64,000 nucleotides of DNA from a virus (lineage: Duplodnaviria; Caudoviricetes), in IMG/VR virus record IMGVR_UViG_3300033076_000117, positions 204 to 64,203 of that record. The stretch is one strand, 5' to 3'. Of the stretch, positions 1 through 40,460 are shown piece by piece. A program made the position numbers and the translations under genes. The first letter of the stretch is position 1. The number at the start of each line of letters is the position of its first letter. The notes below the pieces were generated by a model. That model did no database searches, was not told the DNA's origin, and worked only from the letters and a program-made list of their open reading frames with translations.

Positions 1-1
1 T

Positions 2-187
2 GCACTGCAAGGACGAGTGCCAACCAAAGTCAGAGGTACAATTCGTAAAGGTGACATGATGGTTAGTGCAGGTAATGGTTATGCTAGACCAAGTAACTCT
101 CCTACAATGGGAACTGTTATAGGTAAAGCATTAGAAAACTTTGATGGCATTGAGGGTGTTATTGAAGTAGCAGTTGGACGACTATAA
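2..187 (+). CDS. 3' end of tail fibre/spike protein with C-terminal intramolecular-chaperone-like domain (partial)
   Basis: Frame 2 reads ALQGRVPTKVRGTIRKGDMMVSAGNG...VIGKALENFDGIEGVIEVAVGRL*, the GRVPxKVxG / GDxxVS / VIGKALE pattern typical of phage fibre C-termini; stop TAA 185-187 overlaps the next ATG. Confidence 0.65.
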   Translation, partial: ALQGRVPTKVRGTIRKGDMMVSAGNGYARPSNSPTMGTVIGKALENFDGIEGVIEVAVGRL

Positions 188-1206
188 TGGCAATGATAAC
201 TATTTCAGTTCAAAGTCTTTTGAACGCCGCACTGTATGATAGTTATACAGTAGATGATTCTACTACAGTCGGTGATTTAATGGATCTAATACAAACTGAG
301 ACAGGGGTTAGTCCTGATTGGTACATTCTATCATATGATAATGTTTCATTAGATGTTCCAGTTGCACCGTTGTCAGATTATAACATTGTGGATGGCTCAG
401 TATTGCGTTCAGGTAATGTAATTGCAACATTAGAAACATTACAAGACAGACAACTTGCTAAATTAAACCTAGCGTCATTAGATAGAGCATACGTAGGAAA
501 TCCAAGCACTGAATACGATATAAATTTACTCCCATCACAATACATTGGTAACGACTCAGTTCCCAACGATCATCCAGATGGATTGATTGAGGGTCGTCCT
601 TGGATCCAAGTAAGTCCTGTTCCTGGACCATTTACTTTAAACTGGTACGGTAATGTATCCAACCCAGTCGCAACAACAGGAACATATTCTACTACACATG
701 GTGGAATAACATTAAATCCTGATTCATATATTGACGTTGGATCAGGCCTAAACGCAGGTCCATTTACAATTATGTTAGATGCCGCACCTGGATTGGGATG
801 GAATGGTAACAGTTGGGATTCTATTATAGGTAATGAGAATTACTTTGCCGGCACTGGCTTTCTTTGCTATATCAGTGGTGGAACAAGCATAAGTGCAGGA
901 CAGCCTAATCAGGCTGCTGAAGGTTCTATATCAGATATTACTGATAATGTCAGACGTTTGTATACCTTTACATACGATGGTACTACAATGTCAATTTATG
1001 AAAACGGTTCTCTTGTAGGTAGCAATGAACCATCATATACAACACCTGATAACAATTTCTACATTGGTAGTAGACACGACAACGGAGGGGGTGTTGGCCC
1101 ATATGATTCACAGGGCGGCACCTATTATGCATTAACTGTTACTTCTACTGCATTAAATGCATCACAAGTACTTGCTGAATATAATGCATGGGCGGCATCA
1201 ATATAA
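187..1206 (+). CDS. Virion-region protein: N-terminal ubiquitin-like domain + C-terminal LamG/concanavalin-like domain
   Basis: aa 3-76 align by eye with ubiquitin (TV..L...IQ..TGV.PD...L.Y....L.....LSDYNI...S.L); C-terminus has LamG-type motifs (LYTFTYDGTTMSIYENG, FYIG, ALNASQVLAEYNA). Confidence 0.65.
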   Translation: MAMITISVQSLLNAALYDSYTVDDSTTVGDLMDLIQTETGVSPDWYILSYDNVSLDVPVAPLSDYNIVDGSVLRSGNVIATLETLQDRQLAKLNLASLDRAYVGNPSTEYDINLLPSQYIGNDSVPNDHPDGLIEGRPWIQVSPVPGPFTLNWYGNVSNPVATTGTYSTTHGGITLNPDSYIDVGSGLNAGPFTIMLDAAPGLGWNGNSWDSIIGNENYFAGTGFLCYISGGTSISAGQPNQAAEGSISDITDNVRRLYTFTYDGTTMSIYENGSLVGSNEPSYTTPDNNFYIGSRHDNGGGVGPYDSQGGTYYALTVTSTALNASQVLAEYNAWAASI

Positions 1207-1217
1207 TTATATTATTG

Positions 1218-1309
1218 ATAAATACATAATAACATTCTCATAGGGAGAATTTATGCAGTACCCCACTGCGTAGCGGCTAGAACCCGCAAACATTTAAAGG
1301 AACAAACAA
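1218..1309 (+). ncRNA. Structured 5' leader (three hairpins), copy 1, after late promoter ATAAATA
   Basis: Stems ATTCTC/GAGAAT (1234-1250), TATGCAGT/ACTGCGTA (1252-1272), GCGG/CCGC (1273-1287); homologous to 2938-3026 with compensatory changes. Confidence 0.7.
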
Positions 1310-2203
1310 ATGGGAAACGCATTAAAGATTAGAAAATATCAAGGTAGCCAGGTCGTAGACCAAGGTTTCCCTAACGATGAAACAACAGATAACGGTTACG
1401 ATGGTAACAATCCAGGTATCGTGGGTGGTATCGATGAGCAAAGCGACCAAATCCGTTGCAGTGCAAGTATTCTTGTAATTGGTAATGGGACAATCTCCGC
1501 AGATTCAACTAGTACAACTATCACTGGAACTGGTACTAACTTCACGACTGATTCACTTAATACTGGAAGTTCACAACTTTGGGTAAGTGATGGTCAAGGT
1601 GGCTACACAAGTCTTGGAACTGTTGATAGTGTTACTAATGATGGTGAATTAGAACTAGCCGCAAACTCAGAATTGGATCTTACAGATAGTGCTTGGTACT
1701 ATACTGCTGTGGGTAACGCTTCTATCGTTCGTCAAAAAGGTTCACGTACATTCTTGGTTGCTATGACAACACAGAACACACAAGATGAATCTATTGCAGC
1801 CGGTCAAGCATACATGATTGCTGACGTAAGTGATACTGATTGGCAAGCACTAGGTGCTGATGCTACCGCCGCACAATATGATATCTTCACTGCAACAGTA
1901 AGTGGTCATGGTCTTGCAACAAATGGTGTTGTATATAACGTAGGTACATGTTTATTAGTTGATGAAACTACTCCTCTACAACCAAACACTATGAGTGTTG
2001 AAATCTATAACGATGGCGACACATACAATGCAAGTCGTTTGAAGAACAAGTTCAGTACGAACTTTGATGAGCCTTATGCAAATGCCAACCCTGGCGTTAC
2101 ATATTCTGCTACATTCTTCAATAATAGTGGTAATACATTACCTAACCCATCGGCTGCAGGTGACTTGGTCTATACTGAAGTTGGTACAGAAAACTGGTGC
2201 TAA
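1310..2203 (+). CDS. Putative virion structural protein (paralogue of 3027..4409)
   Basis: Late promoter and SD upstream; shares MGxxLKI N-terminus, IVRQKG..xLV and PNTM motifs with 3027..4409; G/T/N-rich. Confidence 0.6.
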   Translation: MGNALKIRKYQGSQVVDQGFPNDETTDNGYDGNNPGIVGGIDEQSDQIRCSASILVIGNGTISADSTSTTITGTGTNFTTDSLNTGSSQLWVSDGQGGYTSLGTVDSVTNDGELELAANSELDLTDSAWYYTAVGNASIVRQKGSRTFLVAMTTQNTQDESIAAGQAYMIADVSDTDWQALGADATAAQYDIFTATVSGHGLATNGVVYNVGTCLLVDETTPLQPNTMSVEIYNDGDTYNASRLKNKFSTNFDEPYANANPGVTYSATFFNNSGNTLPNPSAAGDLVYTEVGTENWC

Positions 2204-2220
2204 TCAGTTTCTAACTCAAG

Positions 2221-2243
2221 AAAAAGCGGCGTAAGCCGCTTTT
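2221..2243 (+). terminator. Intrinsic terminator (possibly bidirectional)
   Basis: AAAAAGCGGC-GTAA-GCCGCTTTT directly after the stop of 1310..2203. Confidence 0.8.
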
Positions 2244-2257
2244 CCACTATATACTAT

Positions 2258-2938
2258 ATGATAAAATATAGACACCCTGATACATTAGGACATCTCAAAG
2301 AAGACTGGATTGAAACGTATCGCAGTTTCAGTAACAACAGTTATTACGATCCCAACTACATTCATTTCAGCGACTTAGAAGTTATCAACGATGACAGAGT
2401 TCAGCCCAAAAACTGTGTGCCCATTCATCAACATTGTGATATGGAAATCTTAGGATACATCATCGACGGTCCTTGCTACCACAATGATAACTTACACAAT
2501 TACGGTGAAGTACCTAGCGGATGCGTACAACGTATGAGTAGTGGAACTGGTATTTGGCACACTGAAGGCAATCTATCAGACAAGCCTATTCGTTATCTAC
2601 AGATTTGGCTACGACCCAACAAACATAACTTTCCACCGCAATATGATGTAATGCAGTTTACAAGAGAAGATAAACTAGATAAGTTCTGTCCTATTGCTAG
2701 TAATACAGGCCCTATTCATATCAACAGCGATGCTAAAGTATTTGCTGGGATTTTTACAAAGAATCATGTTGTACATTTAAACACTTCACGTAGATACTAT
2801 GTGTATATAGTTTCAGGATCAGCTACGATCAACGGAGTAGATAGTCCTACACTAGGTGGTTTTGCAATAGAAAACGAAACCACATTGGAAATATCTAATC
2901 CCACTGACTCTGAGATACTCCTTTTCGATCTCCGTTGA
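2258..2938 (+). CDS. Pirin-family cupin (YhhW/quercetinase-like)
   Basis: Pirin motifs H.H.DMEI, GCVQRMSSGTGIWHTE.N, LQIW. Confidence 0.85.
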   Translation: MIKYRHPDTLGHLKEDWIETYRSFSNNSYYDPNYIHFSDLEVINDDRVQPKNCVPIHQHCDMEILGYIIDGPCYHNDNLHNYGEVPSGCVQRMSSGTGIWHTEGNLSDKPIRYLQIWLRPNKHNFPPQYDVMQFTREDKLDKFCPIASNTGPIHINSDAKVFAGIFTKNHVVHLNTSRRYYVYIVSGSATINGVDSPTLGGFAIENETTLEISNPTDSEILLFDLR

Positions 2939-3026
2939 TAAATACAATGTACGCTCACATTCGGTGAGTTTATGCGGTCCCCGCCGCGTAGTGGAATAGA
3001 ACCCACATATCAATAAGGAGAAACAA
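2938..3026 (+). ncRNA. Structured 5' leader (three hairpins), copy 2, after late promoter ATAAATA
   Basis: Stems GCTCAC/GTGAGT (2953-2969), TATGCGGT/GCCGCGTA (2971-2990), GTGG/CCAC (2991-3006); loops CCCC and TAGAAC conserved with copy 1. Confidence 0.7.
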
Positions 3027-4409
3027 ATGGGACGCCCTTTAAAAATCGCAAAGGCTCAAGCAGTCTTAACAATTACAGATACAACAAACGCAACATCTGC
3101 GGTTACTGTATCACAGAATTTAAATACGTTAGTCATTCTACGTGGTATGCAATTTGTTGTTGCATCTGATGTAGGTGGACTTTCAGCCAACACAGTATAC
3201 TGGGTACTAGAAGTTTTAGATGATAACAATTTTACAGTTTCTGCAACATCACCTGATGCAAATAGAACAAGCACACCAGTAACATTGTCAGATACAACAA
3301 GTCAATCTGTGTTAGCATCTGTCAACGTTGTTGATGCATGGTTCAACAATCCAGTAGGTGGCCCAGGATTCCCTACAACTAACGCTAATACATATGGTGT
3401 AGTCGGTGGAAATACAGCAATCGTTGGTCCACAAGTACTATGTGAAGTTGCTTTCAATGTGCCTCAAACAGGTCGTGTATTTGCTGATACAGGTAGCAAC
3501 ATTGTCGCTGGTTATGGTACTGATTTTGCTAACTTAGTAGTTGGTACAAACATATACGCTCTATGGGGTGATGGTACTGGTACACCTATGTTATTAGGTA
3601 CAACAACCTCTACAGCAGGTAATCATACTGTTGCAGTTGCAAACACACAAAACACAGGTAACATCATTGGTACATCAGGTAATGCATTGACACTAGTTGA
3701 AGGTGCCCCAGTTACATTCAGTGCTAACTTAGGTGGTCTAATAACAGGTACTACATATTGGGTATTGAACACTGCTAACGCAACAGCATTTACAGTGTCA
3801 TTAACTCCAGGTGGCGCAGAAGTTGACTTATCTGATGCTACTGGAACACCAACAGCAAGCCAACAACAAGTTGTATTGACTGCGGTTTCAGCAAACAATG
3901 CTACAGGTGTTGATGGTACAGGTGACACTTATACATCTGCTCTACTAGAACAAGGTTATATTGTTCGTCAAAAGGGCAAGACAAAGTATTTGGTACAAGG
4001 TGTAACGTCTGGTATTCTTGGTCCAGTATACACTGCTAACGTTGCGAACGCGGCATTAGAGCCAAATACAATGAACATCATTGCTACATATGCTGACTCA
4101 AGCACTGCTTATGTTGCTAGCTTAAATGACTATCAATCTGAAGTATTCCCTGACCAAGTGGCTGCTGAAGATTTAGTTGTTGGAACAACATATACAATTT
4201 ACAGTACAGGTGACACTAACTGGGCAGAAGTTGGTTCAGCAAGCAACATGACAGGTGTTTCATTCGTTGCAAATGCTTCAGGCTCTGGTACAGGTACTGC
4301 TATTTTAGCAAATGCAAATCCTGATATCATCTCTACGTTCAACACTGCTTATGCGGCTAATACGTATGATGGTCAACCTAACCCAATCGTAACAATCAAC
4401 AACGCATAA
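3027..4409 (+). CDS. Putative virion structural protein (paralogue of 1310..2203)
   Basis: Late promoter, SD AAGGAG; T/G/A/N-rich beta modules; shared IVRQKG motif. Confidence 0.6.
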   Translation: MGRPLKIAKAQAVLTITDTTNATSAVTVSQNLNTLVILRGMQFVVASDVGGLSANTVYWVLEVLDDNNFTVSATSPDANRTSTPVTLSDTTSQSVLASVNVVDAWFNNPVGGPGFPTTNANTYGVVGGNTAIVGPQVLCEVAFNVPQTGRVFADTGSNIVAGYGTDFANLVVGTNIYALWGDGTGTPMLLGTTTSTAGNHTVAVANTQNTGNIIGTSGNALTLVEGAPVTFSANLGGLITGTTYWVLNTANATAFTVSLTPGGAEVDLSDATGTPTASQQQVVLTAVSANNATGVDGTGDTYTSALLEQGYIVRQKGKTKYLVQGVTSGILGPVYTANVANAALEPNTMNIIATYADSSTAYVASLNDYQSEVFPDQVAAEDLVVGTTYTIYSTGDTNWAEVGSASNMTGVSFVANASGSGTGTAILANANPDIISTFNTAYAANTYDGQPNPIVTINNA

Positions 4410-4410
4410 T

Positions 4411-4725
4411 ATGACTACGAAAGCTATTAGAATGCCGACTAAAAAGACAGAAACTGAAGTGGCTGTTCTTCAAGTGCAGGTAGAAAATATCACTAATGAT
4501 ATTAGCGAAATCAAAGCTGATATCAAAGATGTAAACGCCTGCATAGTTAAAAACAATGAAGATACGCACAACTTTTTAAAAGAAATGAAAGAAGCCAGTG
4601 CTAGTGCTCACAAAGCAATGTCCGACAAAATCACCGCGTTAGAAAAATGGCGATGGATGATGATGGGAGCAGGTGTAGTTATAGGCTCACTTGGATTCGA
4701 AACATTGGGCAAGTTGCTCAAGTAA
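4411..4725 (+). CDS. Coiled-coil protein with C-terminal transmembrane helix (holin/XhlA-like?)
   Basis: Heptad pattern aa 15-78, then WRWMMMGAGVVIGSLGF hydrophobic segment. Confidence 0.45.
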   Translation: MTTKAIRMPTKKTETEVAVLQVQVENITNDISEIKADIKDVNACIVKNNEDTHNFLKEMKEASASAHKAMSDKITALEKWRWMMMGAGVVIGSLGFETLGKLLK

Positions 4726-4728
4726 CTA

Positions 4729-4752
4729 AAAAGGACTCTTACGAGTCCTTTT
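4729..4752. terminator. Bidirectional terminator between convergent genes
   Basis: AAAAGGACTC-TTAC-GAGTCCTTTT, with A and T tracts on the two sides. Confidence 0.8.
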
Positions 4753-5152
4753 CTGTTAGTGCTTTTAGTTTTTCTTGTACAACGTCAAAGTTCACTGTAT
4801 TGAATAATCCAGGATGTAATGGTTTAGGATATTGATGATCCCCTACCCAAGCATATCCACAGTGTTCGTAGTTCAATTTAGGTATGAATTCATTATCGAC
4901 TTCACAAAAGAATGTATGATACGTGAATGAGTGATTCACGAACTTCTGAATAGGAACTAGTTTTGCTTTCTTAGGGAAGTATCCGATTTCTTCCTCGCAT
5001 TCACGTTGAATGCCTTCAATCAATGTTTCATCACCCTCAATCTTGCCACCAGGAATCCCCCAGTTGCCTGGGTTCTTACTGTCTGTTCGTAGTAGATATA
5101 AGAAACGTTCTGTATTCTTTGCGTAAAAGAATACGCCTGCTGATTGACTCAT
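4739..5152 (-). CDS. Nudix hydrolase
   Basis: Nudix box GGKIEGDETLIEGIQRECEEEIG. Confidence 0.9.
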   Translation of the reverse strand: MSQSAGVFFYAKNTERFLYLLRTDSKNPGNWGIPGGKIEGDETLIEGIQRECEEEIGYFPKKAKLVPIQKFVNHSFTYHTFFCEVDNEFIPKLNYEHCGYAWVGDHQYPKPLHPGLFNTVNFDVVQEKLKALTEKDS

Positions 5153-5170
5153 ACTATCATTTATCTTAGT

Positions 5171-6544
5171 TTAGATAACGATAGAATAATCTCCCTGGTC
5201 GTACCAGCCCTCATAACTCTTCATCCACACACCATCAGGTGTATATCGATACTGAATGTTTGTGGTCAAGTTAGTAACGTATTCAACTGTTGTAGCTGTT
5301 TCACTATCAAATGAGACAAACCACTCACCTGAATCACCATCATACTCAACGATATCATTTGCACTAGCTACTAATGGGCCCCATGCAGTTGTAGTATCAC
5401 CATCATGCCCCACATTATCAACTAATATATAACGAACTCCTGGAACTGGGCCAGGTAATCCTGCGTTAGGTCCAGAAGTCAATGGGTTTACAACACTATT
5501 GACAGGTGCTAATGTATTTTGTGGCAATGTATCGGTGTCGATGTTATAGATTAGTAATCTATCATCTGTTGGATCGGGAACGATAGTACCAACAATGTCA
5601 GTGTTCATATATGGATTCTGTAACCAAATTTGACTGATGCCAGGACGCAACGTGCCATAGACGTTCAATAACGATGACCAATACAGGTTAGTATCCGGTG
5701 GGTTTGGATAGTTCAAGTCTAAGTTACTTTCGTAGAATGCTTCATCTGCGGGTAGTAACTGTAGTCTATTACCAATCAACAATACTTTGTATCCATAAGG
5801 TGTAATCTTTTGACGAGTACCTAATAGCAAGTCATCATCTTGCATGTCTTGTAATGCTTGACCTTTGTAGATACTTGCAATGACCTTTTCGATAACGCCC
5901 ATCTTCTTTAGTTTAGCGGCTGCGCTGATCCAAATAGGCATATAGAACTTCCATGACATAACATCGATAGGGTTACCAGTACCTTGCGGAATAGTTCTGC
6001 TACTAAAAGTCAATCCATCTTGATAAACAACACTCAATGATGTCCAATCAACAAAGTTGTCAGTAGACTGAATTTCTAATGACGGGTTGAATAGTGTACC
6101 AAGTTGTTCAATCAATTCTAGTTTTTGATTGTAGTTAGTAGTCCAAAAGTCAACGTTGATTCGTAATGTGTATGGAACAGGCATGATACGTTCAACTGTA
6201 AATGCTTGACCCTGAACAGTTTCATAGTTGCCAGTGTCACTATTGAAAGCACGTTGACGAACGTTGATACTTTCAACATACGTAGGATCTTGTGTTCTAC
6301 GTTGGTCGTATTCTAACCCACTGATGTAATACGTAATCAATGGTGCGCTAGGTGTATTACTTGCACTGTTGTTGGCAATGATAGTAGCAGCCTGGCGAGA
6401 ACTATCACCATACATGATAGGTACACGCACAAGAATGTCATTACCGTTAGGGTCTTTGCCCTTAGTGACTTGCCAGTTACTAAAGATTTTTGCAAATTGA
6501 ATTAGAAATCTGCGTATCTGATTGTCGTAGAAAAATTGTGCCAT
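5171..6544 (-). CDS. Tail completion/terminator protein (T4 gp15-like)
   Basis: N-terminus FFYDNQIRRFLIQFAKIFSN and VPIMYG, PVPY, EQL..LFNP motifs resemble gp15-like proteins; structural context. Confidence 0.7.
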   Translation of the reverse strand: MAQFFYDNQIRRFLIQFAKIFSNWQVTKGKDPNGNDILVRVPIMYGDSSRQAATIIANNSASNTPSAPLITYYISGLEYDQRRTQDPTYVESINVRQRAFNSDTGNYETVQGQAFTVERIMPVPYTLRINVDFWTTNYNQKLELIEQLGTLFNPSLEIQSTDNFVDWTSLSVVYQDGLTFSSRTIPQGTGNPIDVMSWKFYMPIWISAAAKLKKMGVIEKVIASIYKGQALQDMQDDDLLLGTRQKITPYGYKVLLIGNRLQLLPADEAFYESNLDLNYPNPPDTNLYWSSLLNVYGTLRPGISQIWLQNPYMNTDIVGTIVPDPTDDRLLIYNIDTDTLPQNTLAPVNSVVNPLTSGPNAGLPGPVPGVRYILVDNVGHDGDTTTAWGPLVASANDIVEYDGDSGEWFVSFDSETATTVEYVTNLTTNIQYRYTPDGVWMKSYEGWYDQGDYSIVI

Positions 6545-12269: not shown

Positions 12270-12390
12270 CTTGTATTTAGCCAAAAACCTTCGAAGGTAC
12301 GCATAACCAGTCTTTTTCCGTTTATTCGATAAATACTTTTATGCATTTTAAGGTGGTAAACCTCATAATTTTACATAAAGGAAAAACAAA

Positions 12391-15300
12391 ATGGCATTAA
12401 CATCACCAGGCGTAGAAGTTACAATCATTGATGAAAGTCAGTATCTTCCAGCCCCAACAAACTCAGTTCCTCTAGTCGTATTAGCTACTGCTCAAAACAA
12501 AGCTAACGCTACTGGAACAGGCGTTGCCGCCGCTACAACGGCTGCAAACGCAGGTAAACTATATCAGGTAACAAGTCAGCGTGATTTGGTAAACTTGTAT
12601 GGTAAGCCGTTCTTCTATTCAACAACAAACGGTACACCTATTCAGGGCTATGAACTGAACGAGTATGGTCTATTGGCTGCTTACTCATTATTGGGTGTAA
12701 CAAATCGTTGTTATGTTCTACGTGCTGATATCGACTTAGCTAGCTTAGTCGGTCAAACTGGTCGTCCAGTTGGTGCACCAGCAGATGGTACTTATTGGTT
12801 GGATACAACTACAAGTACATGGGGTATCTATGAATTCAACAGTTCTACTGGTGACTTCACACAACAAACCCCTATCGTTATTACTGATACGTCTTTAATG
12901 GACAATGGTCTACCTGTACAAAGTATTGGTAGTATCGGTGATTATGCAGTGTATGCGTTGGATATAAACACTCCTCCATTCTCATCACCACGTACATACT
13001 ATCACAAGACTACAACTAATCAATGGACAATTTTAGGATCTTCAGCATGGAGAAGTCACGTTCCAACTATTATTGGAAGTAACTCCCCAACATCATTGAA
13101 CCAAGGTGATACACTAGATATCTCATTGTCAGGTGCTGATCCTTTCACAATTACTGTCCCACTATCACCTAACAACACCGTAACAGGTCTTGCTGATGCG
13201 ATTAATAATTTAGGTTTTGGTTCTATATTTGCCGCAAACGTTGATGGTAGACTTAATATCTACTCTAACCAATTTTGGGTAACAGGTTCTACTACTACAA
13301 ATATTACTATTACTAGTTCTACTGGTACTGTTGTAGAAGATTTGGGTATAACTCAGAATGTTCGTTACAATCAGCCCGTAATACAATATGGAACATATGC
13401 TCAAATGCCATATTGGACTGCATCACAAGCTAACCCTAGACCTACAGGTTCTGTTTGGTTAAAAGTTGGTTCATCTGGTGGTGGTTTGGCTCCAGTAGTA
13501 TCTAAGTATAGTGCGGCTACTGCTTCTTGGATTAAACAACCAGTAGGCTCATATCAATCTGATTGGGCGGCAACAGCACAACTTGACCCAACTGGTGGAC
13601 AAGCTGTTCCTGCTGGAACTATTTACGGTCAATATACATTCAATGGAAGCACAGCTAATAGTCCATATTACCTATGGAAGAGAAGTGCAACTGGTCCTAC
13701 AGTCGTTACGGGTACAGCAACATTCGAAAGTGCAACTGCTCCTGTGTTCAACTCAGGTCCATATAACATGACCATAAATGTTAGCTTGCCAGGTAGTCCT
13801 CATGTATCTTCTCCATATTATTTTATAATTGATGATGGAGCAAGTGTTACTGATTTCATAACTGCGCTATATGGTTCAGGTGTTCCATATGTTAATGCAT
13901 CCGCTGTTGCAGGAACTAATGCTATTCAGCTTACTCACACTGAAGGTGGAGAGATTCTACTAACAGATATCGACCCAAACACTGGTATAAGTTCAGGCTT
14001 GTTAGCAGAAATTGGCATTGTACCTACTGAAACTACAGGTGTAAAGTATGGTCCCGTAGTCAGTACATCATTCTATGATGTACCAGTTTCTTCTACTACA
14101 TCTGCGAGTGGTGCTAACGCAACATTCAATGTTTCAACTCCTGGATACTACAACTTGTTATTGATAAGTGATGGTGGTTCTTTCTATGAAGTTGGTGATC
14201 AAGTTACTCTTTCAGGTGCTGATATGGGTGGACAAGGTCAAGACCTAGTATTAGGTGTAACTAGTGTTGACGGTGGTGGTGCTATTACAGGTGCAACATG
14301 GGTGTCAGGTACAGTAAATACAGCGTACATGGCACAATTAAGTAATTGGCAAGATTTTTCATATACTGCAAATGAAGGAGCTCCTGCTGTTGCACCAGCA
14401 AATAACACAAATTGGTTCTACTCAGTCGTTGATGAAGTAGATATCATGGTTCAAAAGGGTGGTGCATGGATTGGATATCAAAACACTGCGTATGACTCTA
14501 CTGGTCACCCAGCATTTACTGGTGTTAATAATACTGATCCAAATGGTCCAATCATTTCTGCAAGTAAGCCTACTACACAATCTGATGGTACTCCATTAGA
14601 ATATGGTGATTTGTGGATCGATACAAGCGACCTTGAAATGTATCCAGTAATCAGTCGTTGGCAATCAGTTTCTAACGTAGATCAGTGGGTTCTAATCGAT
14701 AACACAGATCAAACATCTACTAATGGTGTTACATTCTTAGATGCACGTTGGGCAACAAATGGCACAACAAGTCCAATTGATGATCCAATACCAACAATTC
14801 AATCATTGTTGACAAGTAATTATCTAGACCTAGATGCACCAAGCCCAAGTCTATATCCACAAGGTATGTTGTTGTTTAACACACGCCGTAGCGGTTACAA
14901 TGTGAAGCAATTCCGTACAAACTATTTCAACAATACTAGTTTCCCTGGTCAATCATTACCAGAGCAAACAAGTGCATGGGTTTCTGTAAGTGGCAATCAA
15001 ACAAATGGTGCACCTTACATGGGTCGTAAGGCACAACGTGCTATGGTTGTTGAATCTCTACGTTCTGTAATTGACACTAACTTGTCAATTCGTGATGAAG
15101 ATAACTACTTCAACTTGATTGCTACACCTAACTATCCTGAATTACAACCTAACATGGTTGTATTGAATGCAGATCGTGGTGAAACAGCGTTTATTATTGG
15201 TGATACACCATTAGGTCTACCTGATAGTGCTACTGATATTCAAGCATGGGCTAACAACGATGCAGGTGCATCAAGCACAGGTGAAGAAGGTCTAGTTACA

Positions 15301-26308: not shown

Positions 26309-28786
26309 ATGGCACAACCTGTATGGATCACTACTGCGGGCTCAATAGGAAATTACCCTGCATTGTTTTCAATGAGTTTTCAATTGGAAGCAGAACCTGT
26401 ACTACCAGCAACAACGATAACGTATACGTTGTTGAGTGGGTCATTACCACCAGGTATAACAATGGATTCAACTGGTTTAATAACTGGAACACCTTCACTA
26501 GTAACTCAATTAACTACATCATCTTTTGCTGTAAGAGTGACAGATAATTTAGGTAACATTCGTGACCGTACATTTTCTATGCAAATTTCAGGTTCTGCCA
26601 TACCAGCATTCACTACGCCACCTGGATTAATAAGCTCAATTTTAGATAGTACATGGATTGATTTACCTATAACATTTTCAAACCCCGATTCTTCTAATCC
26701 AGTAATTATTCAAGTCAAAGAAGGTGAGTTGCCACCAGGATTAGAGATTGATATTTTAGGTGTAATCAGAGGTTATGCAAAACCACCAACAGTTACTGTT
26801 AACAGACCTTTAATAACTACATTGGCCTCTGCAACAAGTAGTGCGACTAATGAAATAACAGTTCTGTCAACATCAGGATTTTCTGTAGGTAGGCCTATCA
26901 TTTTCACAGGAACTGTATTTGGTAATATCGTTTCTGGACAGACTTATTATATTAAGTCAATATCTTCTAATAATACAATTACTATTACTTCAACACAAGG
27001 TGGCTTAGTTCAATTACTAGGTGACGGTGTAGGTTCAATGACAGTTACGTTACCATCAGTTTCAACTGGACAACCTATTATAAGAACATACAGTTTTACA
27101 TTAGAAATAACTAGTCCATTGGGTGGAAATACTGCCTCATATTCTATAACAGTGATTAACCAAAACACTCCTGTTAATCAAGGTGGTCCTGGAAGACTCC
27201 CAAACACTAGAATACCTACTTTATTAAATACTAGACCTTTAACGTATAACTTAAACGACAGCGACCCCTACTATGGATATTATTCACTGCCACCTGTAGC
27301 ACCGTCAACTCCTGCGTCTTTAGGTAAATTTCAAAGCGGGGAATTTTTTGCATTCAAAATGATAGGATATGATTTTGATAGCAACCCATTACAATATAGT
27401 TTTAGTGGATTACCTAGTTTCTTAACAGGTGATGTTAATACAGGATGGATAACAGGTACTCCTACATTAGCAACTGCTAGTATCAGTAGTTATAGTTTTA
27501 GTGTTAGTGTGTTTAAGGCAGATGCTCCTCAATATGCAACACCTTATTTTAACTTTGTAATGGATGTACAAAAAGATATTACTGGAAAAATTGTTTGGAG
27601 TTCTGGTAACAATCTTGGAACGATCCTCAATGGTAATATCAGTACATTGTTTGTCCGAGCAATTAGTGATGTTCCTCTATCTTATAGAATAACTTCAGGA
27701 TCGTTGCCACCTAATTTAGTTTTGTCAACATCAGGAGAAATAATAGGCAGAGTTGCAGACCAACCTACTAGTACACTGTTAGAACAAAATTCAACGACTG
27801 AATACACATTTACTGTTCAAGCATATTCTACAAAATATACATCAGTGAGTTCATCTAAAACATTTACAGTTACTGTTCTACAAGAATTCACTCAGCCAAC
27901 TGATATTCTTTATATCAAAGCAACACCACCTCTTAATGATAGAGTGTTGTTAGATTCATTATTAAACAACGATACAATTATTCCACCTGAAATGATATAT
28001 CGCCCAGAGGATCAATACTTTGGAAAAGCGTCAAGTGTAATATATGAACACGCTTATGGAATATATGCAAGCGACATTCAACAGTACCTAGACGCTGTAC
28101 AAAGAAATCACTATTGGAGAAATATCACACTTGGTGAGATAAAAACTGCAATTGCCAAGAATGATGCAGGTGAAGTTATTTACGAAGTAGTATATAGTGA
28201 AATAATTGACAACTTAGTAAATCCAAAAGGAGTTAGTATCAGTGAGCAAATTTACTGGCCTAGATTTATTGATTTAGGATTAGGTCCTTGGTATACAAGT
28301 AGCACATCAATAAAGACTAGTTGGGAAGAGCAATTAGGTCAGCAATATTATACAAGTTTAACACCTGGATATGCACGTGTATTATATCCAAACAGTTTGT
28401 CAAACATGCGTAATCGTGTAGCGCAGACACTAGGACAAGAGTACAATAGTAAGTTGTTACCACAGTGGATGACTAGCCAACAGGAAAATGGTAGTACACT
28501 AGGTTACACTGCGGCTTGGGTAATATGCTATACAAAACCTGGATTCAGTCAGACAGTTAAAAACAACATCGAGACATTGCTACCATTCACTTTGAATCAG
28601 ATTAATTTTGAACTTGATAGATTCAGTGTAGATAAGAGCGCAACATATAATTACGATAGCGCAGGTGATCCTCCTGCTTGGGATTCATTACCAAGTGCAA
28701 CACCAGCACCTGATCCACTAGACAGTCAAGATTTTTATGTATTGTTCCCGAGAAAAACTATTTTACCGAACAAAACACAATACTAA
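26309..28786 (+). CDS. Baseplate wedge protein with putative Ig (He_PIG) repeats
   Basis: Repeated SGSLPPG/N..L..SG.I.G.P units; between fibre and other structural genes. Confidence 0.6.
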   Translation: MAQPVWITTAGSIGNYPALFSMSFQLEAEPVLPATTITYTLLSGSLPPGITMDSTGLITGTPSLVTQLTTSSFAVRVTDNLGNIRDRTFSMQISGSAIPAFTTPPGLISSILDSTWIDLPITFSNPDSSNPVIIQVKEGELPPGLEIDILGVIRGYAKPPTVTVNRPLITTLASATSSATNEITVLSTSGFSVGRPIIFTGTVFGNIVSGQTYYIKSISSNNTITITSTQGGLVQLLGDGVGSMTVTLPSVSTGQPIIRTYSFTLEITSPLGGNTASYSITVINQNTPVNQGGPGRLPNTRIPTLLNTRPLTYNLNDSDPYYGYYSLPPVAPSTPASLGKFQSGEFFAFKMIGYDFDSNPLQYSFSGLPSFLTGDVNTGWITGTPTLATASISSYSFSVSVFKADAPQYATPYFNFVMDVQKDITGKIVWSSGNNLGTILNGNISTLFVRAISDVPLSYRITSGSLPPNLVLSTSGEIIGRVADQPTSTLLEQNSTTEYTFTVQAYSTKYTSVSSSKTFTVTVLQEFTQPTDILYIKATPPLNDRVLLDSLLNNDTIIPPEMIYRPEDQYFGKASSVIYEHAYGIYASDIQQYLDAVQRNHYWRNITLGEIKTAIAKNDAGEVIYEVVYSEIIDNLVNPKGVSISEQIYWPRFIDLGLGPWYTSSTSIKTSWEEQLGQQYYTSLTPGYARVLYPNSLSNMRNRVAQTLGQEYNSKLLPQWMTSQQENGSTLGYTAAWVICYTKPGFSQTVKNNIETLLPFTLNQINFELDRFSVDKSATYNYDSAGDPPAWDSLPSATPAPDPLDSQDFYVLFPRKTILPNKTQY

Positions 28787-28808: not shown

Positions 28809-30095
28809 ATGAGTCAAATAAACACAAGCGGAATCAATGTAAATTATCCAGTACCTGGTATCAACCAAAGCTCACAGGGCTTTCGTGATAATTTTGCGGC
28901 GATCAAAACAAACTTAGACACTGGTTATAATGAACTTACTGACCTACAAAACAAAGTAGTTTTGAAGGCGGCATTGAACGGTACCACATTAAACAATGAC
29001 ATGGCTAATACACTTATTAGCAATGCATCTACACGTGGTTTCAGAGCAACAACATATAATTTAGGTAATGCTATTTCTGGCATTGCAACAGTTAATGCTA
29101 GCTTAGGTGATGTACAGTATGGTACAATCGTAGGTAACACAACACTACAGTTTACTGGATGGAGTCCAACTGGTACACAGAGCAGTGTTCAAGTAGATTT
29201 CAATATAGGTAATACATCTGCGGTAATCACTTTACCTGCAGAAGTTCAATTAGTAAATGCCTTTGGTGCAGAAACACTAGAAAACTATTCAAATGTAGGC
29301 GGTCTAGCCACATTGACTATACCTAATGGCGTTGAAGCAGTGACATACAATTTCAGCACCATTGATTGCGGTAATAGCATTGCTGTCACACCAATCAATA
29401 GACCAAGACAATCTACACAAATTCAACAACGTTCTATTACACCAACTGGATTGCCAGGAGATGTTGCGGGAACAGTATCAGTTGATCCAGCAGTATATCA
29501 ATTGCCAATTGCTAATACAAACTCCGCAGATTATTTTACGACAACTGGTAATACAGCACAGCTATTCACAGACATGCCAATCGTCTTTACAGGCACAAGC
29601 ATGGAAGCAAACATTACAATAGGAACAACATACTATGTACGTAACGTAGTTTCTAGTAATACATTTACTGTGTGTTCTTCTATTGGTGGTGCAAACGTAA
29701 ACTTAGCAGGCAATAGTAGTCCTACTAGTGCTATGAATGGTAATCCTGTTACTTACATGTATGTCTGTACAAATACATATGATTCTACCATGTATACTAA
29801 GACAGTGAGTGCAACTTACGATACAGGAAATATCACATTAAACAATACAAACTCATTAGAAGTTAATGCGCCTATTGTATTTGAAGGTGATGTGGTCGGT
29901 GGATTATCTGCAGGAACTATATATTACATAAAGACTATAGGTTCCGGTGGAAACATTACTATCAGTCAGTCTAGAACCAGTGGTGTCGCTGGTACTGTCG
30001 TAACTCTTGCTAACGCAACTCCAACAACTGATTGCAATGCAATTGCGTTTATTGGGAATGATATTTGGAAAAAGATTCCATTGACTTCTTGGTAA
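28809..30095 (+). CDS. Putative virion structural protein
   Basis: Late promoter CTAAATA 28783-28789; YPVPG...SSQGFRDNF N-terminus; two beta modules shared with 3027 and 26309. Confidence 0.55.
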   Translation: MSQINTSGINVNYPVPGINQSSQGFRDNFAAIKTNLDTGYNELTDLQNKVVLKAALNGTTLNNDMANTLISNASTRGFRATTYNLGNAISGIATVNASLGDVQYGTIVGNTTLQFTGWSPTGTQSSVQVDFNIGNTSAVITLPAEVQLVNAFGAETLENYSNVGGLATLTIPNGVEAVTYNFSTIDCGNSIAVTPINRPRQSTQIQQRSITPTGLPGDVAGTVSVDPAVYQLPIANTNSADYFTTTGNTAQLFTDMPIVFTGTSMEANITIGTTYYVRNVVSSNTFTVCSSIGGANVNLAGNSSPTSAMNGNPVTYMYVCTNTYDSTMYTKTVSATYDTGNITLNNTNSLEVNAPIVFEGDVVGGLSAGTIYYIKTIGSGGNITISQSRTSGVAGTVVTLANATPTTDCNAIAFIGNDIWKKIPLTSW

Positions 30096-38186: not shown

Positions 38187-40460
38187 ATGACAAACTCACC
38201 CGAAATTGAAAGCATTATTGAGCAAGCAATTGTTTGTGCTAAAGAACGCAAGCACGAATATGTAACAGTTGAACACTTGCTACATGCATTGATTACACAT
38301 ACTCCATTCAAAAAGTGTTTAGACAGTTTTGGTGTAGAAGCTGAATTGATGGCACAAGAAGTGGCTGCATATCTCGACAGCCTACACGCTATTGAAGCAC
38401 AAGATAAATCTGTTGAGGTTCAACCTCGCAAAACAAACGCACTTGAAAGAACAATGAACCGTAGCGTGACGCAGGTTCTATTCACTGGTCGTAGACAAGT
38501 TACAACAATCGACTTGTATCTTTCTATCGCAAGCGAAGGTAACAGTCATGCACATTACTTCCTCTTGAAGTATGGCGTCAACAAACAAGAATTTGTACAG
38601 CACTGGCAAAAGACTTACAAGGGTGCTGAATACACAGCTAAACTTACAGACGGTCAAGCTGATGAAATCCTTGAAGAATACACAACTAACCTCAGCGAAC
38701 TTGCACGACAAGGTAAACTTGAGCCATTGATTGGTCGTAGTAAAGAACTTGATGAAATCGTTAATGTTCTCGCTAAACGCTATAAAGCAAACGTGTTGAT
38801 GGTTGGTGATCCAGGTGTAGGTAAGACTGCAATTGCTGAAGGTCTTGCTCAAGTTATCTTGGATGGCAGTGCTCCTGAATTCATTCATGGCTATGACGTA
38901 TATAGCCTCGAAGTTGCAGGCTTGCTTGCAGGTAGCAAGTATCGAGGTGACTTTGAAGAAAAGGTCAAACTTGTCATTGATGCATTGAATTCTAAAAAGA
39001 AAGCAATCTTGTTCATTGACGAAGCACACACTATGAAGGGTTCTGGTAGCTCTACAGGTGGTAGTATCGACTTTGCGAATATGATTAAGCCCGCAATTAC
39101 TAAGGGTACACTGAAAGTTATTGCAAGTACAACATGGGAAGAATTCTACGAGTCCTTCGAAAAGGATCGTGCATTGATGCGTAGATTCTATAAAGTCTCT
39201 ATTGACGAACCAAGTCAAGAATCTACTATTCGTATTCTCAAGGGTTTGAGTTCACGCCTAAATGAATTCCACGAAGTAGAGATTACAGACGAAGCAATCA
39301 ATGCCGCAGTTGAAAGCTCTGCACGTTATATTCACGACCGTAAAAATCCTGACAAGAGTATTGACTTGTTGGATGCGGCATGCGCCCGTCAGAAAGTTGA
39401 TGGCAAAAAAGGCGTTCAGATTGATAAAGATATGATTTATCAACAAGTTGAACGTTTTACAGGAGTTCCAGCTGACAAACTTAATGGTGACAGCATGGAT
39501 CGTATCCAAACATTAGAAGTTAACGTTAAAGGTAAGTTGTATGGTCAGGATGAGACTGTAGATCAGGTTCTTGAACGTGTTTATGTCAGTTTCGCTGGTA
39601 TCGGTAACGAGAATAAGCCTACTGCTAGTTTCTTGTTCTTGGGACCAACAGGTACAGGTAAAACAGAACTGGCTAAGTTGTTGAGTAAAAATCTCGACAT
39701 GCCATTGCTCAAGTATGATATGTCAGAATATGGCGAAAAGCATTCTGTATCTAGTTTGATCGGTCCGCCTCCTGGTTATGTTGGCTTTAATGACAGTCAA
39801 GTTAGCGGTGGGCGCCTAATCAACGACTTGAGCAAGAATCCTCACAGCATCTTGTTGTTCGATGAAGTTGAGAAAGCACACCCTGATATTTTCAACATCT
39901 TCTTACAGATGTTAGATGAAGGTCGTATCACTGGTAGTAACGGTAAAGAAGTCAATTGTAAGAACACAATCATTATCATGACTAGTAACTTGGGCGCAAG
40001 TGATAGTGAACGTAATCAGATTGGTTTCGGCAGTCAAGAAAAGACGGGTGAAGATGAAAAGGCATTGCGTGAATTCTTCAAGCCTGAATTCCGTAATCGT
40101 TTGGATCTTGTTTGTAAGTTCAAGAAACTTGATATGCTTGCAATCAAGAAGATTGTTGTCAAATTCGCTGAGGACTTGAAGAAGTCATTAGTTGACAAAC
40201 ACAACATTACTCTTGTGTTGTCTGAGCCTGTTATCGAACACTTGGCAGAAGAAGGTTACGATAAGAAGATGGGCGCACGTCCTCTAGCACGTAAGATTGA
40301 CGAGTTGGTTCGTGTGCCACTATCTAAGAAGATTCTGTTTGAGCGCATCAAAAATAGTGTAATCACTGCTAAGATGGGTGAGAGTGGTATCGAATTTGAA
40401 GTAGCACAAAAACTAACAGCATCGGTGGGTGAAAATGGGATTATTGAAGTCAGTCAATGA
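38187..40460 (+). CDS. clpA: ClpA-type AAA+ unfoldase
   Basis: N-domain HEYVTVEHLL; Walker A GDPGVGKT and GPTGTGKT; DEAH and DEVEKAH; IGF loop (RNQIGFG); MGARPL. Confidence 0.9.
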   Translation: MTNSPEIESIIEQAIVCAKERKHEYVTVEHLLHALITHTPFKKCLDSFGVEAELMAQEVAAYLDSLHAIEAQDKSVEVQPRKTNALERTMNRSVTQVLFTGRRQVTTIDLYLSIASEGNSHAHYFLLKYGVNKQEFVQHWQKTYKGAEYTAKLTDGQADEILEEYTTNLSELARQGKLEPLIGRSKELDEIVNVLAKRYKANVLMVGDPGVGKTAIAEGLAQVILDGSAPEFIHGYDVYSLEVAGLLAGSKYRGDFEEKVKLVIDALNSKKKAILFIDEAHTMKGSGSSTGGSIDFANMIKPAITKGTLKVIASTTWEEFYESFEKDRALMRRFYKVSIDEPSQESTIRILKGLSSRLNEFHEVEITDEAINAAVESSARYIHDRKNPDKSIDLLDAACARQKVDGKKGVQIDKDMIYQQVERFTGVPADKLNGDSMDRIQTLEVNVKGKLYGQDETVDQVLERVYVSFAGIGNENKPTASFLFLGPTGTGKTELAKLLSKNLDMPLLKYDMSEYGEKHSVSSLIGPPPGYVGFNDSQVSGGRLINDLSKNPHSILLFDEVEKAHPDIFNIFLQMLDEGRITGSNGKEVNCKNTIIIMTSNLGASDSERNQIGFGSQEKTGEDEKALREFFKPEFRNRLDLVCKFKKLDMLAIKKIVVKFAEDLKKSLVDKHNITLVLSEPVIEHLAEEGYDKKMGARPLARKIDELVRVPLSKKILFERIKNSVITAKMGESGIEFEVAQKLTASVGENGIIEVSQ

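Follow-up and report, generated by a model that had tools for sequence, protein, structure and literature searches.

Why should two phage genes, whose proteins have diverged considerably, be preceded by nearly the same structured RNA? This question is raised by a 64-kb stretch of DNA (the window in what follows) from the IMG/VR virus record IMGVR_UViG_3300033076_000117, a fragment with a completeness of about 18% that comes from a giant myovirus, T4-like and uncultured. In this stretch, two leaders of three hairpins each, at 1234-1312 and 2953-3029, run into the start codons of two paralogous genes. All positions given here are those of the window, and every feature named lies on its plus strand. 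As described below, both leaders belong to freshwater-2, an RNA family already catalogued in Rfam, and the loop of their second hairpin may pair with the very start codon that it precedes.

Two Members of the freshwater-2 RNA Family

Both leaders were compared with Rfam 15 by means of cmscan, as the preliminary description of this locus had proposed. Both matched RF02980 (freshwater-2) over model positions 1-84 of 84 and without truncation, with scores of 70.3 bits for copy 1 (1234-1312) and 59.3 bits for copy 2 (2953-3029), the gathering score of the family being 49.9 bits. When the covariance model is searched against the 64-kb window, the corresponding E-values are 1e-8 and 2e-6, and even a cut-off of E 0.5 yields no third copy there. 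Neither leader comes close to any other Rfam family, and no riboswitch family in Rfam matches them even at E 10. The features that define RF02980 are found in both copies, namely three consecutive hairpins (P1, P2 and P3), P2 arms of the form UUAUGCNG and CNGCGUA, and a P3 loop of UAGAAC; the same is true for the 3′ part of the model, which consists of an A-rich linker, the sequence AAGGAG and the AUG of the downstream open reading frame (ORF). There is no structural difference between the Rfam family and the window copies. Both leaders are bona fide members of a catalogued RNA family and not a new RNA class, and the earlier statement that they could not be matched to a known RNA is overturned by two full-length matches. 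This removes the novelty and leaves the question of function, as the preliminary description itself had anticipated for such a case.

In all other respects, the duplicated leaders were confirmed in every detail by the sequence and by RNAfold, from the late promoter box through P1, P2 and P3 to the Shine–Dalgarno (SD) sequence and the AUG. The minimum free energy and centroid structures contain exactly three hairpins in both copies. In copy 1, a T4-type late promoter box, GATAAATA, can be read directly at 1217-1224. It is followed by P1 (span 1234-1250), in which ATTCTC at 1234-1239 pairs with GAGAAT at 1245-1250, by P2 (span 1252-1272), in which TATGCAGT at 1252-1259 pairs with ACTGCGTA at 1265-1272 around the loop ACCCC, and by P3 (span 1273-1287), with GCGG at 1273-1276, the loop CTAGAAC and CCGC at 1284-1287. 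An A-rich linker, with an SD at about 1297-1301, then leads to the AUG at 1310-1312. In copy 2, the same box, GATAAATA, lies at 2937-2944 and overlaps the TGA stop codon (2936-2938) of a pirin-like ORF. Here, P1 (span 2953-2969) is formed by GCTCAC at 2953-2958 and GTGAGT at 2964-2969, P2 (span 2971-2990) by TATGCGGT at 2971-2978 and GCCGCGTA at 2983-2990 around the loop CCCC, and P3 (span 2991-3006) by GTGG at 2991-2994 and CCAC at 3003-3006 around the loop AATAGAAC. The SD, AAGGAG, is at 3015-3020 and the AUG at 3027-3029, both by direct reading. Overall, the two leaders agree in 81% of their alignment columns.

To our knowledge, freshwater-2 is an orphan Rfam family without a host organism, a mechanism or an experiment, and its type in Rfam is given as Cis-reg only. 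It was presumably found in aquatic or freshwater metagenomic DNA of unclassified origin. The motif is said to come from the 224-motif comparative screen of Weinberg et al. 2017. The main text of that article (PMC5737381) does not mention freshwater-2, and a full-text literature search for 'freshwater-2' returned unrelated water-quality papers only. What is added here beyond the Rfam entry is the phage origin, the T4-type late promoter directly upstream, the single family of downstream proteins, and a proposed pseudoknot that joins the P2 loop to the start codon, which does not appear in the consensus structure line of RF02980. Freshwater-2 thereby gets a firm place in giant myoviruses that are uncultured, where it makes up all of the 5′ leader of T4-type late mRNAs and always precedes a member of the same abundant, unnamed protein family. 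The value of the finding lies in this context and in a start-codon pseudoknot that can be tested, not in the novelty of the RNA.

Relatives and Covariation of the Hairpins

Relatives of the two leaders were collected by a scan for the pattern of the conserved core, which led to more than 119 IMG/VR contigs, and by two more scans, which brought the set to 144 non-redundant copies on viral contigs. Covariation was measured on the alignment of these 144 sequences (alignment A4). P2, of 7-8 base pairs (bp), is 99.7% paired and conserved in sequence (UUAUGCNG and CNGCGUA), with a single variable pair that is GC in 71 copies, AU in 35, UA in 32 and unpaired in 1. This variable pair is the same position at which the two window copies differ. 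P3, of 4 bp, is 95.4% paired; all four of its pairs change on both sides, giving more than 30 combinations of arms, while its loop, UAGAAC, was fixed by the search patterns with which the relatives were collected. The covariation score is 0.418, compared with 0.102 in shuffles and at most 0.058 when the partners are slid against each other. Such a pattern shows that the hairpin structure is under selection.

The homologues thus do covary in both P2 and P3, and the base-pair swaps that had been noted between the two window copies coincide with the positions that covary across 140 distinct relatives. Likewise, the pair counts among the 144 relatives support the earlier proposal of a leader RNA that acts in cis: it is structured and conserved, its covariation is real, and its loops have been kept.

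All 144 copies precede one uncharacterized protein family. Behind every one of the 121 copies from the first scan, there is an ORF that starts with M-G/A-R-P-L/I-K/N (hence MGRP family), and the codons of this N-terminus vary synonymously (CGU, CGC and AGA; CCN), which shows that it is selected at the protein level. The downstream ORFs range from 116 to 512 amino acids (aa), and 110 of them fall into one BLAST cluster even without their first 15 residues. Two relatives that are about 91% complete (318 and 328 kb) carry one RNA and one family gene each.

Outside these metagenomic viral contigs, the family is scarce. Among the GenBank phages (50,697 records), there is no DNA match to positions 1-6000 of the window, nor a tblastn match of the second window protein (P0002, 460 aa) or of a 149-aa family member. 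The pattern was found 18 times in 185,579 species genomes, and two of these hits are true freshwater-2 copies; the other 16 were rejected as chance hits with no covariance-model match. The two true copies are in metagenome-assembled genomes (MAGs), one of a Haliscomenobacter sp. (L248, on a 148-kb contig) and one of a member of the Legionellales (L245, on a 42-kb contig). As both contigs also encode a homologue of T4 gp15, they are phage contigs that were binned into MAGs, and the binning may be either a hint of the host or plain contamination.

There is also some variation between subgroups of the family. In one of them (e.g., L008, L003 and L019), an extra conserved element, AUYGGACUNCU, is present between P3 and the SD; it is confined to that subgroup and absent from the window copies. 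In another subgroup, P1 is extended or compound (GUCAGAUAGUGUGCCGCAAGGCGGAC).

Proposed Pairing of the P2 Loop with the Start Codon

With few exceptions, the last bases of the P2 loop, right before the 3′ arm of the stem, are CCCA, CCCG or CCA, and these sequences are complementary to the UGGG of an AUG-GGN start. In copy 1, the proposed pairing joins CCCA at 1262-1265 to UGGG at 1311-1314, and in copy 2, CCCG at 2980-2983 to UGGG at 3028-3031; in both cases the loop belongs to a position that covaries with codon 2 among the relatives. The energies of these duplexes are about -5.9 kcal/mol for copy 1 and -5.7 kcal/mol for copy 2. In copy 1, A1265 is shared between the pseudoknot strand and the eighth pair of P2. 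Across the family, the best complement of the loop between P3 and position +9 starts at 0 to +5 of the AUG in 111 of the 144 copies.

The evidence that carries this pairing comes from copies in which the second codon has changed. These were collected by a scan for AUGGC starts, in which copies were selected by the start only and the loop was left unconstrained. A GCC in the P2 loop is present in 16 of 37 AUGGCA copies and in none of the 97 AUGGGN copies. Clustering of the copies at 90% identity, for which the loop and codon 2 were masked, gives counts of 10 and 11 versus 0 and 47 (Fisher p = 1.2e-6), and the same test at 85% identity gives a p of 1.8e-4. For instance, a compensated copy, L153, has the loop UAAGCCA together with AUGGCA and encodes a product, MARPLKIAKAQAVLT, of the same protein subfamily as the second gene of the window, while its relatives (e.g., L021) have the loop UAACCCA with AUGGGA. 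The compensating combination of this loop change with a GCA second codon also occurs in L058 and L128. The AUGGCU copies offer a further case: in 6 of 10, all from one clade (L141, L162, L166, L175, L193 and L201), the P2 loop is A(A/C)AGCAA, whose AGC matches the codon GCU one base out of register with the usual CCCA:UGGG pairing.

The geometry, too, is that needed for an H-type pseudoknot: the loop strand lies directly against the 3′ arm of P2, and P3 together with the linker accounts for the length of the connecting loop. Taken as sequence evidence, these observations support a pseudoknot of the H type that involves the start codon. An alternative partner for the P2 loop, the SD, was considered and rejected, as the loops are rich in CCC and do not contain CUCC. 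Scans for AUG-H.. and AUGG-W.. starts were filled with chance matches and gave two doubtful copies and none, respectively, among the matches listed; the second codons among the matches listed encode Gly and Ala only.

Late Promoters and the 5′ End of the Message

T4-type late transcripts start at TATAAATA promoters (PMC3014915), and both window copies have a TATAAATA-like box, which in a T4-type late unit is the only promoter element. The same context is found across the family: a late-type box, NNTAAATA, lies within 70 nucleotides (nt) upstream in 143 of 144 copies, compared with 3.2% of random 70-nt stretches. In the window, TAAATA is rarer than expected, with 45 occurrences versus 68 +/- 8 in shuffles.

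The freshwater-2 leader makes up the whole 5′ untranslated region, which is 85 nt long in copy 1 and 82 nt long in copy 2. Most of the remaining late leaders of the window have a length of 16-24 nt, as seen from the plus-strand TAAATA boxes at that distance before ORF starts with an SD. This difference in length indicates that freshwater-2 is a specific insertion into late leaders that are otherwise minimal. In the window copies, P1 starts about 8-10 nt past the late box, and a distance of 8-9 nt is also the most frequent among the 144 relatives; P1 is consequently expected within a few bases of the transcript start. P1 is also the least conserved part of the RNA and is absent from 14 of the 144 copies.

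One other late leader of the window is unusual. The leader of the tail-sheath gene (12328-12393) is 55 nt long and has a hairpin of its own, AGGUGGUAAACCU. Its 5′ sequence, UUUAUGCA, is like the 5′ arm of P2, and its 3′ end, AUAAAGGAAAAACAAAAUGGCA, closely resembles the 3′ tail of freshwater-2. This leader gets no score from the freshwater-2 covariance model, and it may be a degenerate or an unrelated leader.

The Downstream Protein Family

The first gene (1310-2203) encodes P0001, a protein of 297 aa that starts with MGNALKI and is an MGRP-family member with a diverged N-terminus; a homologue with 44% identity over the full length stands behind another freshwater-2 copy (L101). The second gene (3027-4409) encodes P0002, of 460 aa, which starts with MGRPLKIAKAQ and is an abundant, well-conserved, all-beta hypothetical phage protein. 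As the preliminary description had put it, the two proteins are diverged paralogues, with 31% identity over 99 residues by BLASTP (E 6e-7).

Metagenomes contain more than 1900 clusters homologous to P0002, all of them unnamed and on contigs of up to 364 kb, and P0002 is 62-85% identical to the best 120 of these clusters. Its AlphaFold model (predicted local distance difference test, pLDDT, 76) is a string of beta domains, and its matches in BFVD are fiber, long-tail-fiber and baseplate proteins of aquatic T4-like phages, with E-values down to 2.7e-11 and a low TM-score. The model of the 149-aa family member (pLDDT 85) contains two small SH3/Tudor-like barrels, for which VIA-align gives a best Z of 4.7, to generic Tudor/SH3 barrels. 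For the models of P0002 and of the 149-aa member, Foldseek found nothing in the PDB at E <=0.001. Similarly, Pfam has no family for P0001, P0002 or ten of their relatives, PHROG gave weak hits only, to parts of fiber, baseplate and head-closure proteins, and the ESM Atlas returned unnamed viral clusters only. The only features conserved throughout the family are the N-terminal M-G/A-R-P-L/I-K/N-K and an I-V-x-Q-x-G strand.

The genes adjoin neck genes (gp15-like and adaptor), at the place of wac in T4. It is a reasonable guess from these sequences that the family is a virion accessory protein. The designation of the two genes as virion genes in the preliminary description is plausible, given their late promoters, their neck and tail neighbors and their weak structural likeness to fiber and baseplate proteins. 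A beta domain of P0002 (residues ~174-279) recurs in the ORFs at 26309-28786 and 28809-30095. Neither of these has the MGRP N-terminus or the RNA, and the family shares modules with other structural proteins of the phage.

A Proposed Translational Operator and Its Alternatives

We consider it fairly probable that freshwater-2 is a late-mRNA leader that acts as a translational operator, with a pseudoknot on the start codon and a stabilizing hairpin at the 5′ terminus. In this proposal, transcription would start a few bases after the late box, GATAAATA, which would place P1 at the 5′ terminus of the message, where it may protect the mRNA. P1 would be followed, in this order, by P2, P3, the A-rich linker, a strong SD and the AUG of the MGRP-family gene. 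The 3′ end of the P2 loop (CCCA or CCCG) would pair with UGGG, that is, with the last two bases of the AUG and the first two of codon 2. The resulting H-type pseudoknot would stack on P2 and cover the start codon while leaving the SD free; it would presumably hinder the placement of the AUG in the P site of the 30S subunit and lower translation. Such an operator would set, and probably repress or time, initiation on these late messages. The knot may be locked or opened by some factor, if any, the candidates being the product of the gene itself or another late protein, and contact with a protein could well be made by the P3 loop, which is invariant, and by the conserved stem of P2.

The proposal starts from what is established in this analysis, namely family membership, the late context, the exclusive link to one gene family, and the covariation within P2 and P3 and between the P2 loop and codon 2. 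As is characteristic of operators, the structure includes or abuts the initiation codon, which is indicated by the compensatory change between the P2 loop and UGG(G/C). Of the functions suggested in the preliminary description, a protein-binding site or translational operator has been made more specific by the pairing of the P2 loop with the AUG, while a ligand sensor has become unlikely from the gene content. For an anonymous motif, this provides a concrete and cheaply testable mechanism, for which natural compensatory mutants already exist, and a hint that late structural genes are controlled at the level of translation in a group of phages without cultured members.

Nevertheless, several observations weigh against this proposal. 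The pseudoknot helix is short, with 3-4 bp, and about half of the AUGGC lineages do not have a compensating change in the loop; a few P2 loops are also devoid of any CC. No covariation links the third base of the Gly codon to the loop base that precedes CCC, which means that the helix is not extended. The folding z-scores are modest (-2.3 for copy 1 and -1.6 for copy 2), and the case against chance rests on the comparison among relatives, not on folding energy. The P3 loop, UAGAAC, has no identified partner (a GUUC is present just 5′ of P1 in one subgroup, not in the window copies), so that part of the conserved structure is unexplained. The product of copy 1 does not have the R-P of the N-terminal motif (MGNALKI) and yet it is preceded by a high-scoring RNA, which speaks against the RNA being strictly tied to the N-terminal peptide. 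Finally, we infer, rather than observe, the transcription start, the fold in vivo and the effect on translation.

A specific version of the operator would be autogenous: the MGRP protein, when unassembled, would bind the loops of P2 and P3 and lock the pseudoknot. Binding would make use of the conserved basic N-terminus or of the SH3/Tudor/KOW-like barrels, and the SH3/Tudor fold class does include RNA binders. The strict one-to-one link of the RNA with one gene family is in agreement with this version, as are the precedents of gp32 and S15 (PMC3014915). The conservation of the protein across the family, which is centered on the N-terminal stretch and the I-V-x-Q-x-G strand, can be read in the same way, although the N-terminus could equally be an anchor for virion assembly. 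Moreover, binding of the protein to the RNA is purely hypothetical, the fold match is generic (best Z 4.7), and the protein of copy 1 (MGNALKI), along with several MAK, MAT and MAH variants, has lost the R-P while the RNA has been kept. Overall, we regard this version as unlikely. In its boldest form, the MGRP virion accessory proteins of giant T4-like phages would sense their own unassembled surplus by binding the P2 and P3 loops and locking a 4-bp pseudoknot on their own AUG, and this is less likely still. If it were true, such an autogenous clamp would be a phage-wide structural-protein counterpart of the gp32 and S15 circuits, and promoter, leader and N-terminus would form a portable module.

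The other alternatives do without an operator. The leader could be purely an mRNA stabilizer, or expression cassette, whose 5′ hairpins guard an abundant late message from decay that depends on the 5′ end, with no regulatory meaning for the complementarity between loop and start codon. Stem-loops at the 5′ terminus are known to stabilize bacterial mRNAs, P1 begins 2-4 nt past the expected transcription start in most copies, and the strong SD with an A-rich spacer is as in highly expressed genes. However, P1 is the very part that is least conserved and missing in 14 of 144 copies, a near-invariant P2 sequence and P3 loop would be superfluous for simple protection by a hairpin, and the compensatory change between loop and codon 2 requires a pairing constraint; a purely stabilizing role is therefore doubtful. 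A riboswitch, in which a small pseudoknotted aptamer of the preQ1-II, SAM-II or glutamine-II type would hide the initiation region when bound to its ligand, would fit an RNA that is compact, with several stems and with conserved nucleotides in its loops, as well as a pseudoknot that reaches the translation initiation region and an Rfam type that is just Cis-reg. Against it, all 144 copies precede one family of late, structural-looking phage proteins that have no metabolic or transport role, which makes a ligand sensor very improbable; in addition, expression is already timed by late promoters, the conserved nucleotides are in hairpin loops and stems and not in a junction pocket, and, as mentioned, riboswitch families in Rfam give no match even at E 10. 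Lastly, the similarity of the leaders could be without function, a remnant of a gene duplication that carried the upstream region along. The downstream genes are indeed paralogues, and the shared ancestry of gene and leader is certain, since all copies precede homologous genes. But the proteins have diverged to 31% identity over a fragment, whereas the leaders have kept 81% column identity; the loops stay invariant, and the stems change by compensatory pairs across 140 distinct relatives, so this explanation is contradicted by the covariation counts and is hardly credible.

Comparison with Known Systems

Small riboswitches such as preQ1-II, SAM-II and glutamine-II/Downstream-peptide sequester the ribosome-binding site by means of a pseudoknot. 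In them, as in the structure proposed for freshwater-2, an H-type pseudoknot arises when the loop of a hairpin pairs with the initiation region. In contrast, they control genes linked to their ligands and match their own Rfam models, whereas freshwater-2 matches none of these and precedes phage genes of a structural type.

RNA structures in the initiation regions of T4 late genes are known from gene e and gene 25 (PMC3014915). These are also located at the translation initiation regions of T4-type late transcripts, but they are single local hairpins specific to their genes, while freshwater-2 is a module of three hairpins plus a pseudoknot that is found across a large and diverse gene family.

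The pseudoknot in the leader of the gene 32 mRNA of T4, T2 and RB69 is an operator for autogenous translational control, and the rpsO gene of E. coli also uses a leader pseudoknot for translational autocontrol (PMC3014915). With the gene 32 leader, freshwater-2 has in common that it is a structured 5′ leader of a T4-type phage and that, as proposed here, it contains an H-type pseudoknot whose stems stack coaxially and controls initiation. The gene 32 pseudoknot, however, is 67 nt upstream of the AUG and nucleates the cooperative binding of gp32 over an unstructured ribosome-binding site, whereas the start codon itself would be a strand of the freshwater-2 knot; there is no sequence similarity between the two, and the gene families are different. 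In the case of rpsO, S15 acts by what is called entrapment. If a protein stabilizes the freshwater-2 knot, the two systems would be alike in having a pseudoknot in the initiation region, an accessible SD and a constrained start codon, although rpsO is a bacterial gene for a ribosomal protein and is unrelated in sequence.

Other Features of the Window

In line with a T4-like phage, the genes of the window include those for a T4 gp15-like tail sheath stabilizer, a tail sheath of 1192 aa, a tail tube and a neck adaptor, and for two replication proteins, a family B DNA polymerase and a clamp loader. An ORF of 339 aa (187-1206) lies directly upstream of copy 1, with an N-terminal ubiquitin-like match (PF00240, E 1.6e-5; 25.0 bits, just below the cut-off of 25.4) and a C-terminal Laminin_G_3 or ConA-like lectin domain (27.9 bits). 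Downstream of the first gene, at 2226-2243, we read a terminator-like hairpin, GCGGC-GTAA-GCCGC followed by TTTT, which is just below the T-run rule of the terminator scan and would close the first late transcription unit, of one gene. The pirin-like ORF (2258-2938), between the two late freshwater-2 units, encodes a bicupin (Pfam Pirin, E 1.4e-20; Pirin_C_2, E 5.7e-14) and is an unusual auxiliary gene for the structural region of a T4-like phage. Farther along, at 38187-40460, there is a gene for a 757-aa AAA+ homologue of an 'ATP-dependent protease' (phrog_4871, E 1.6e-236).

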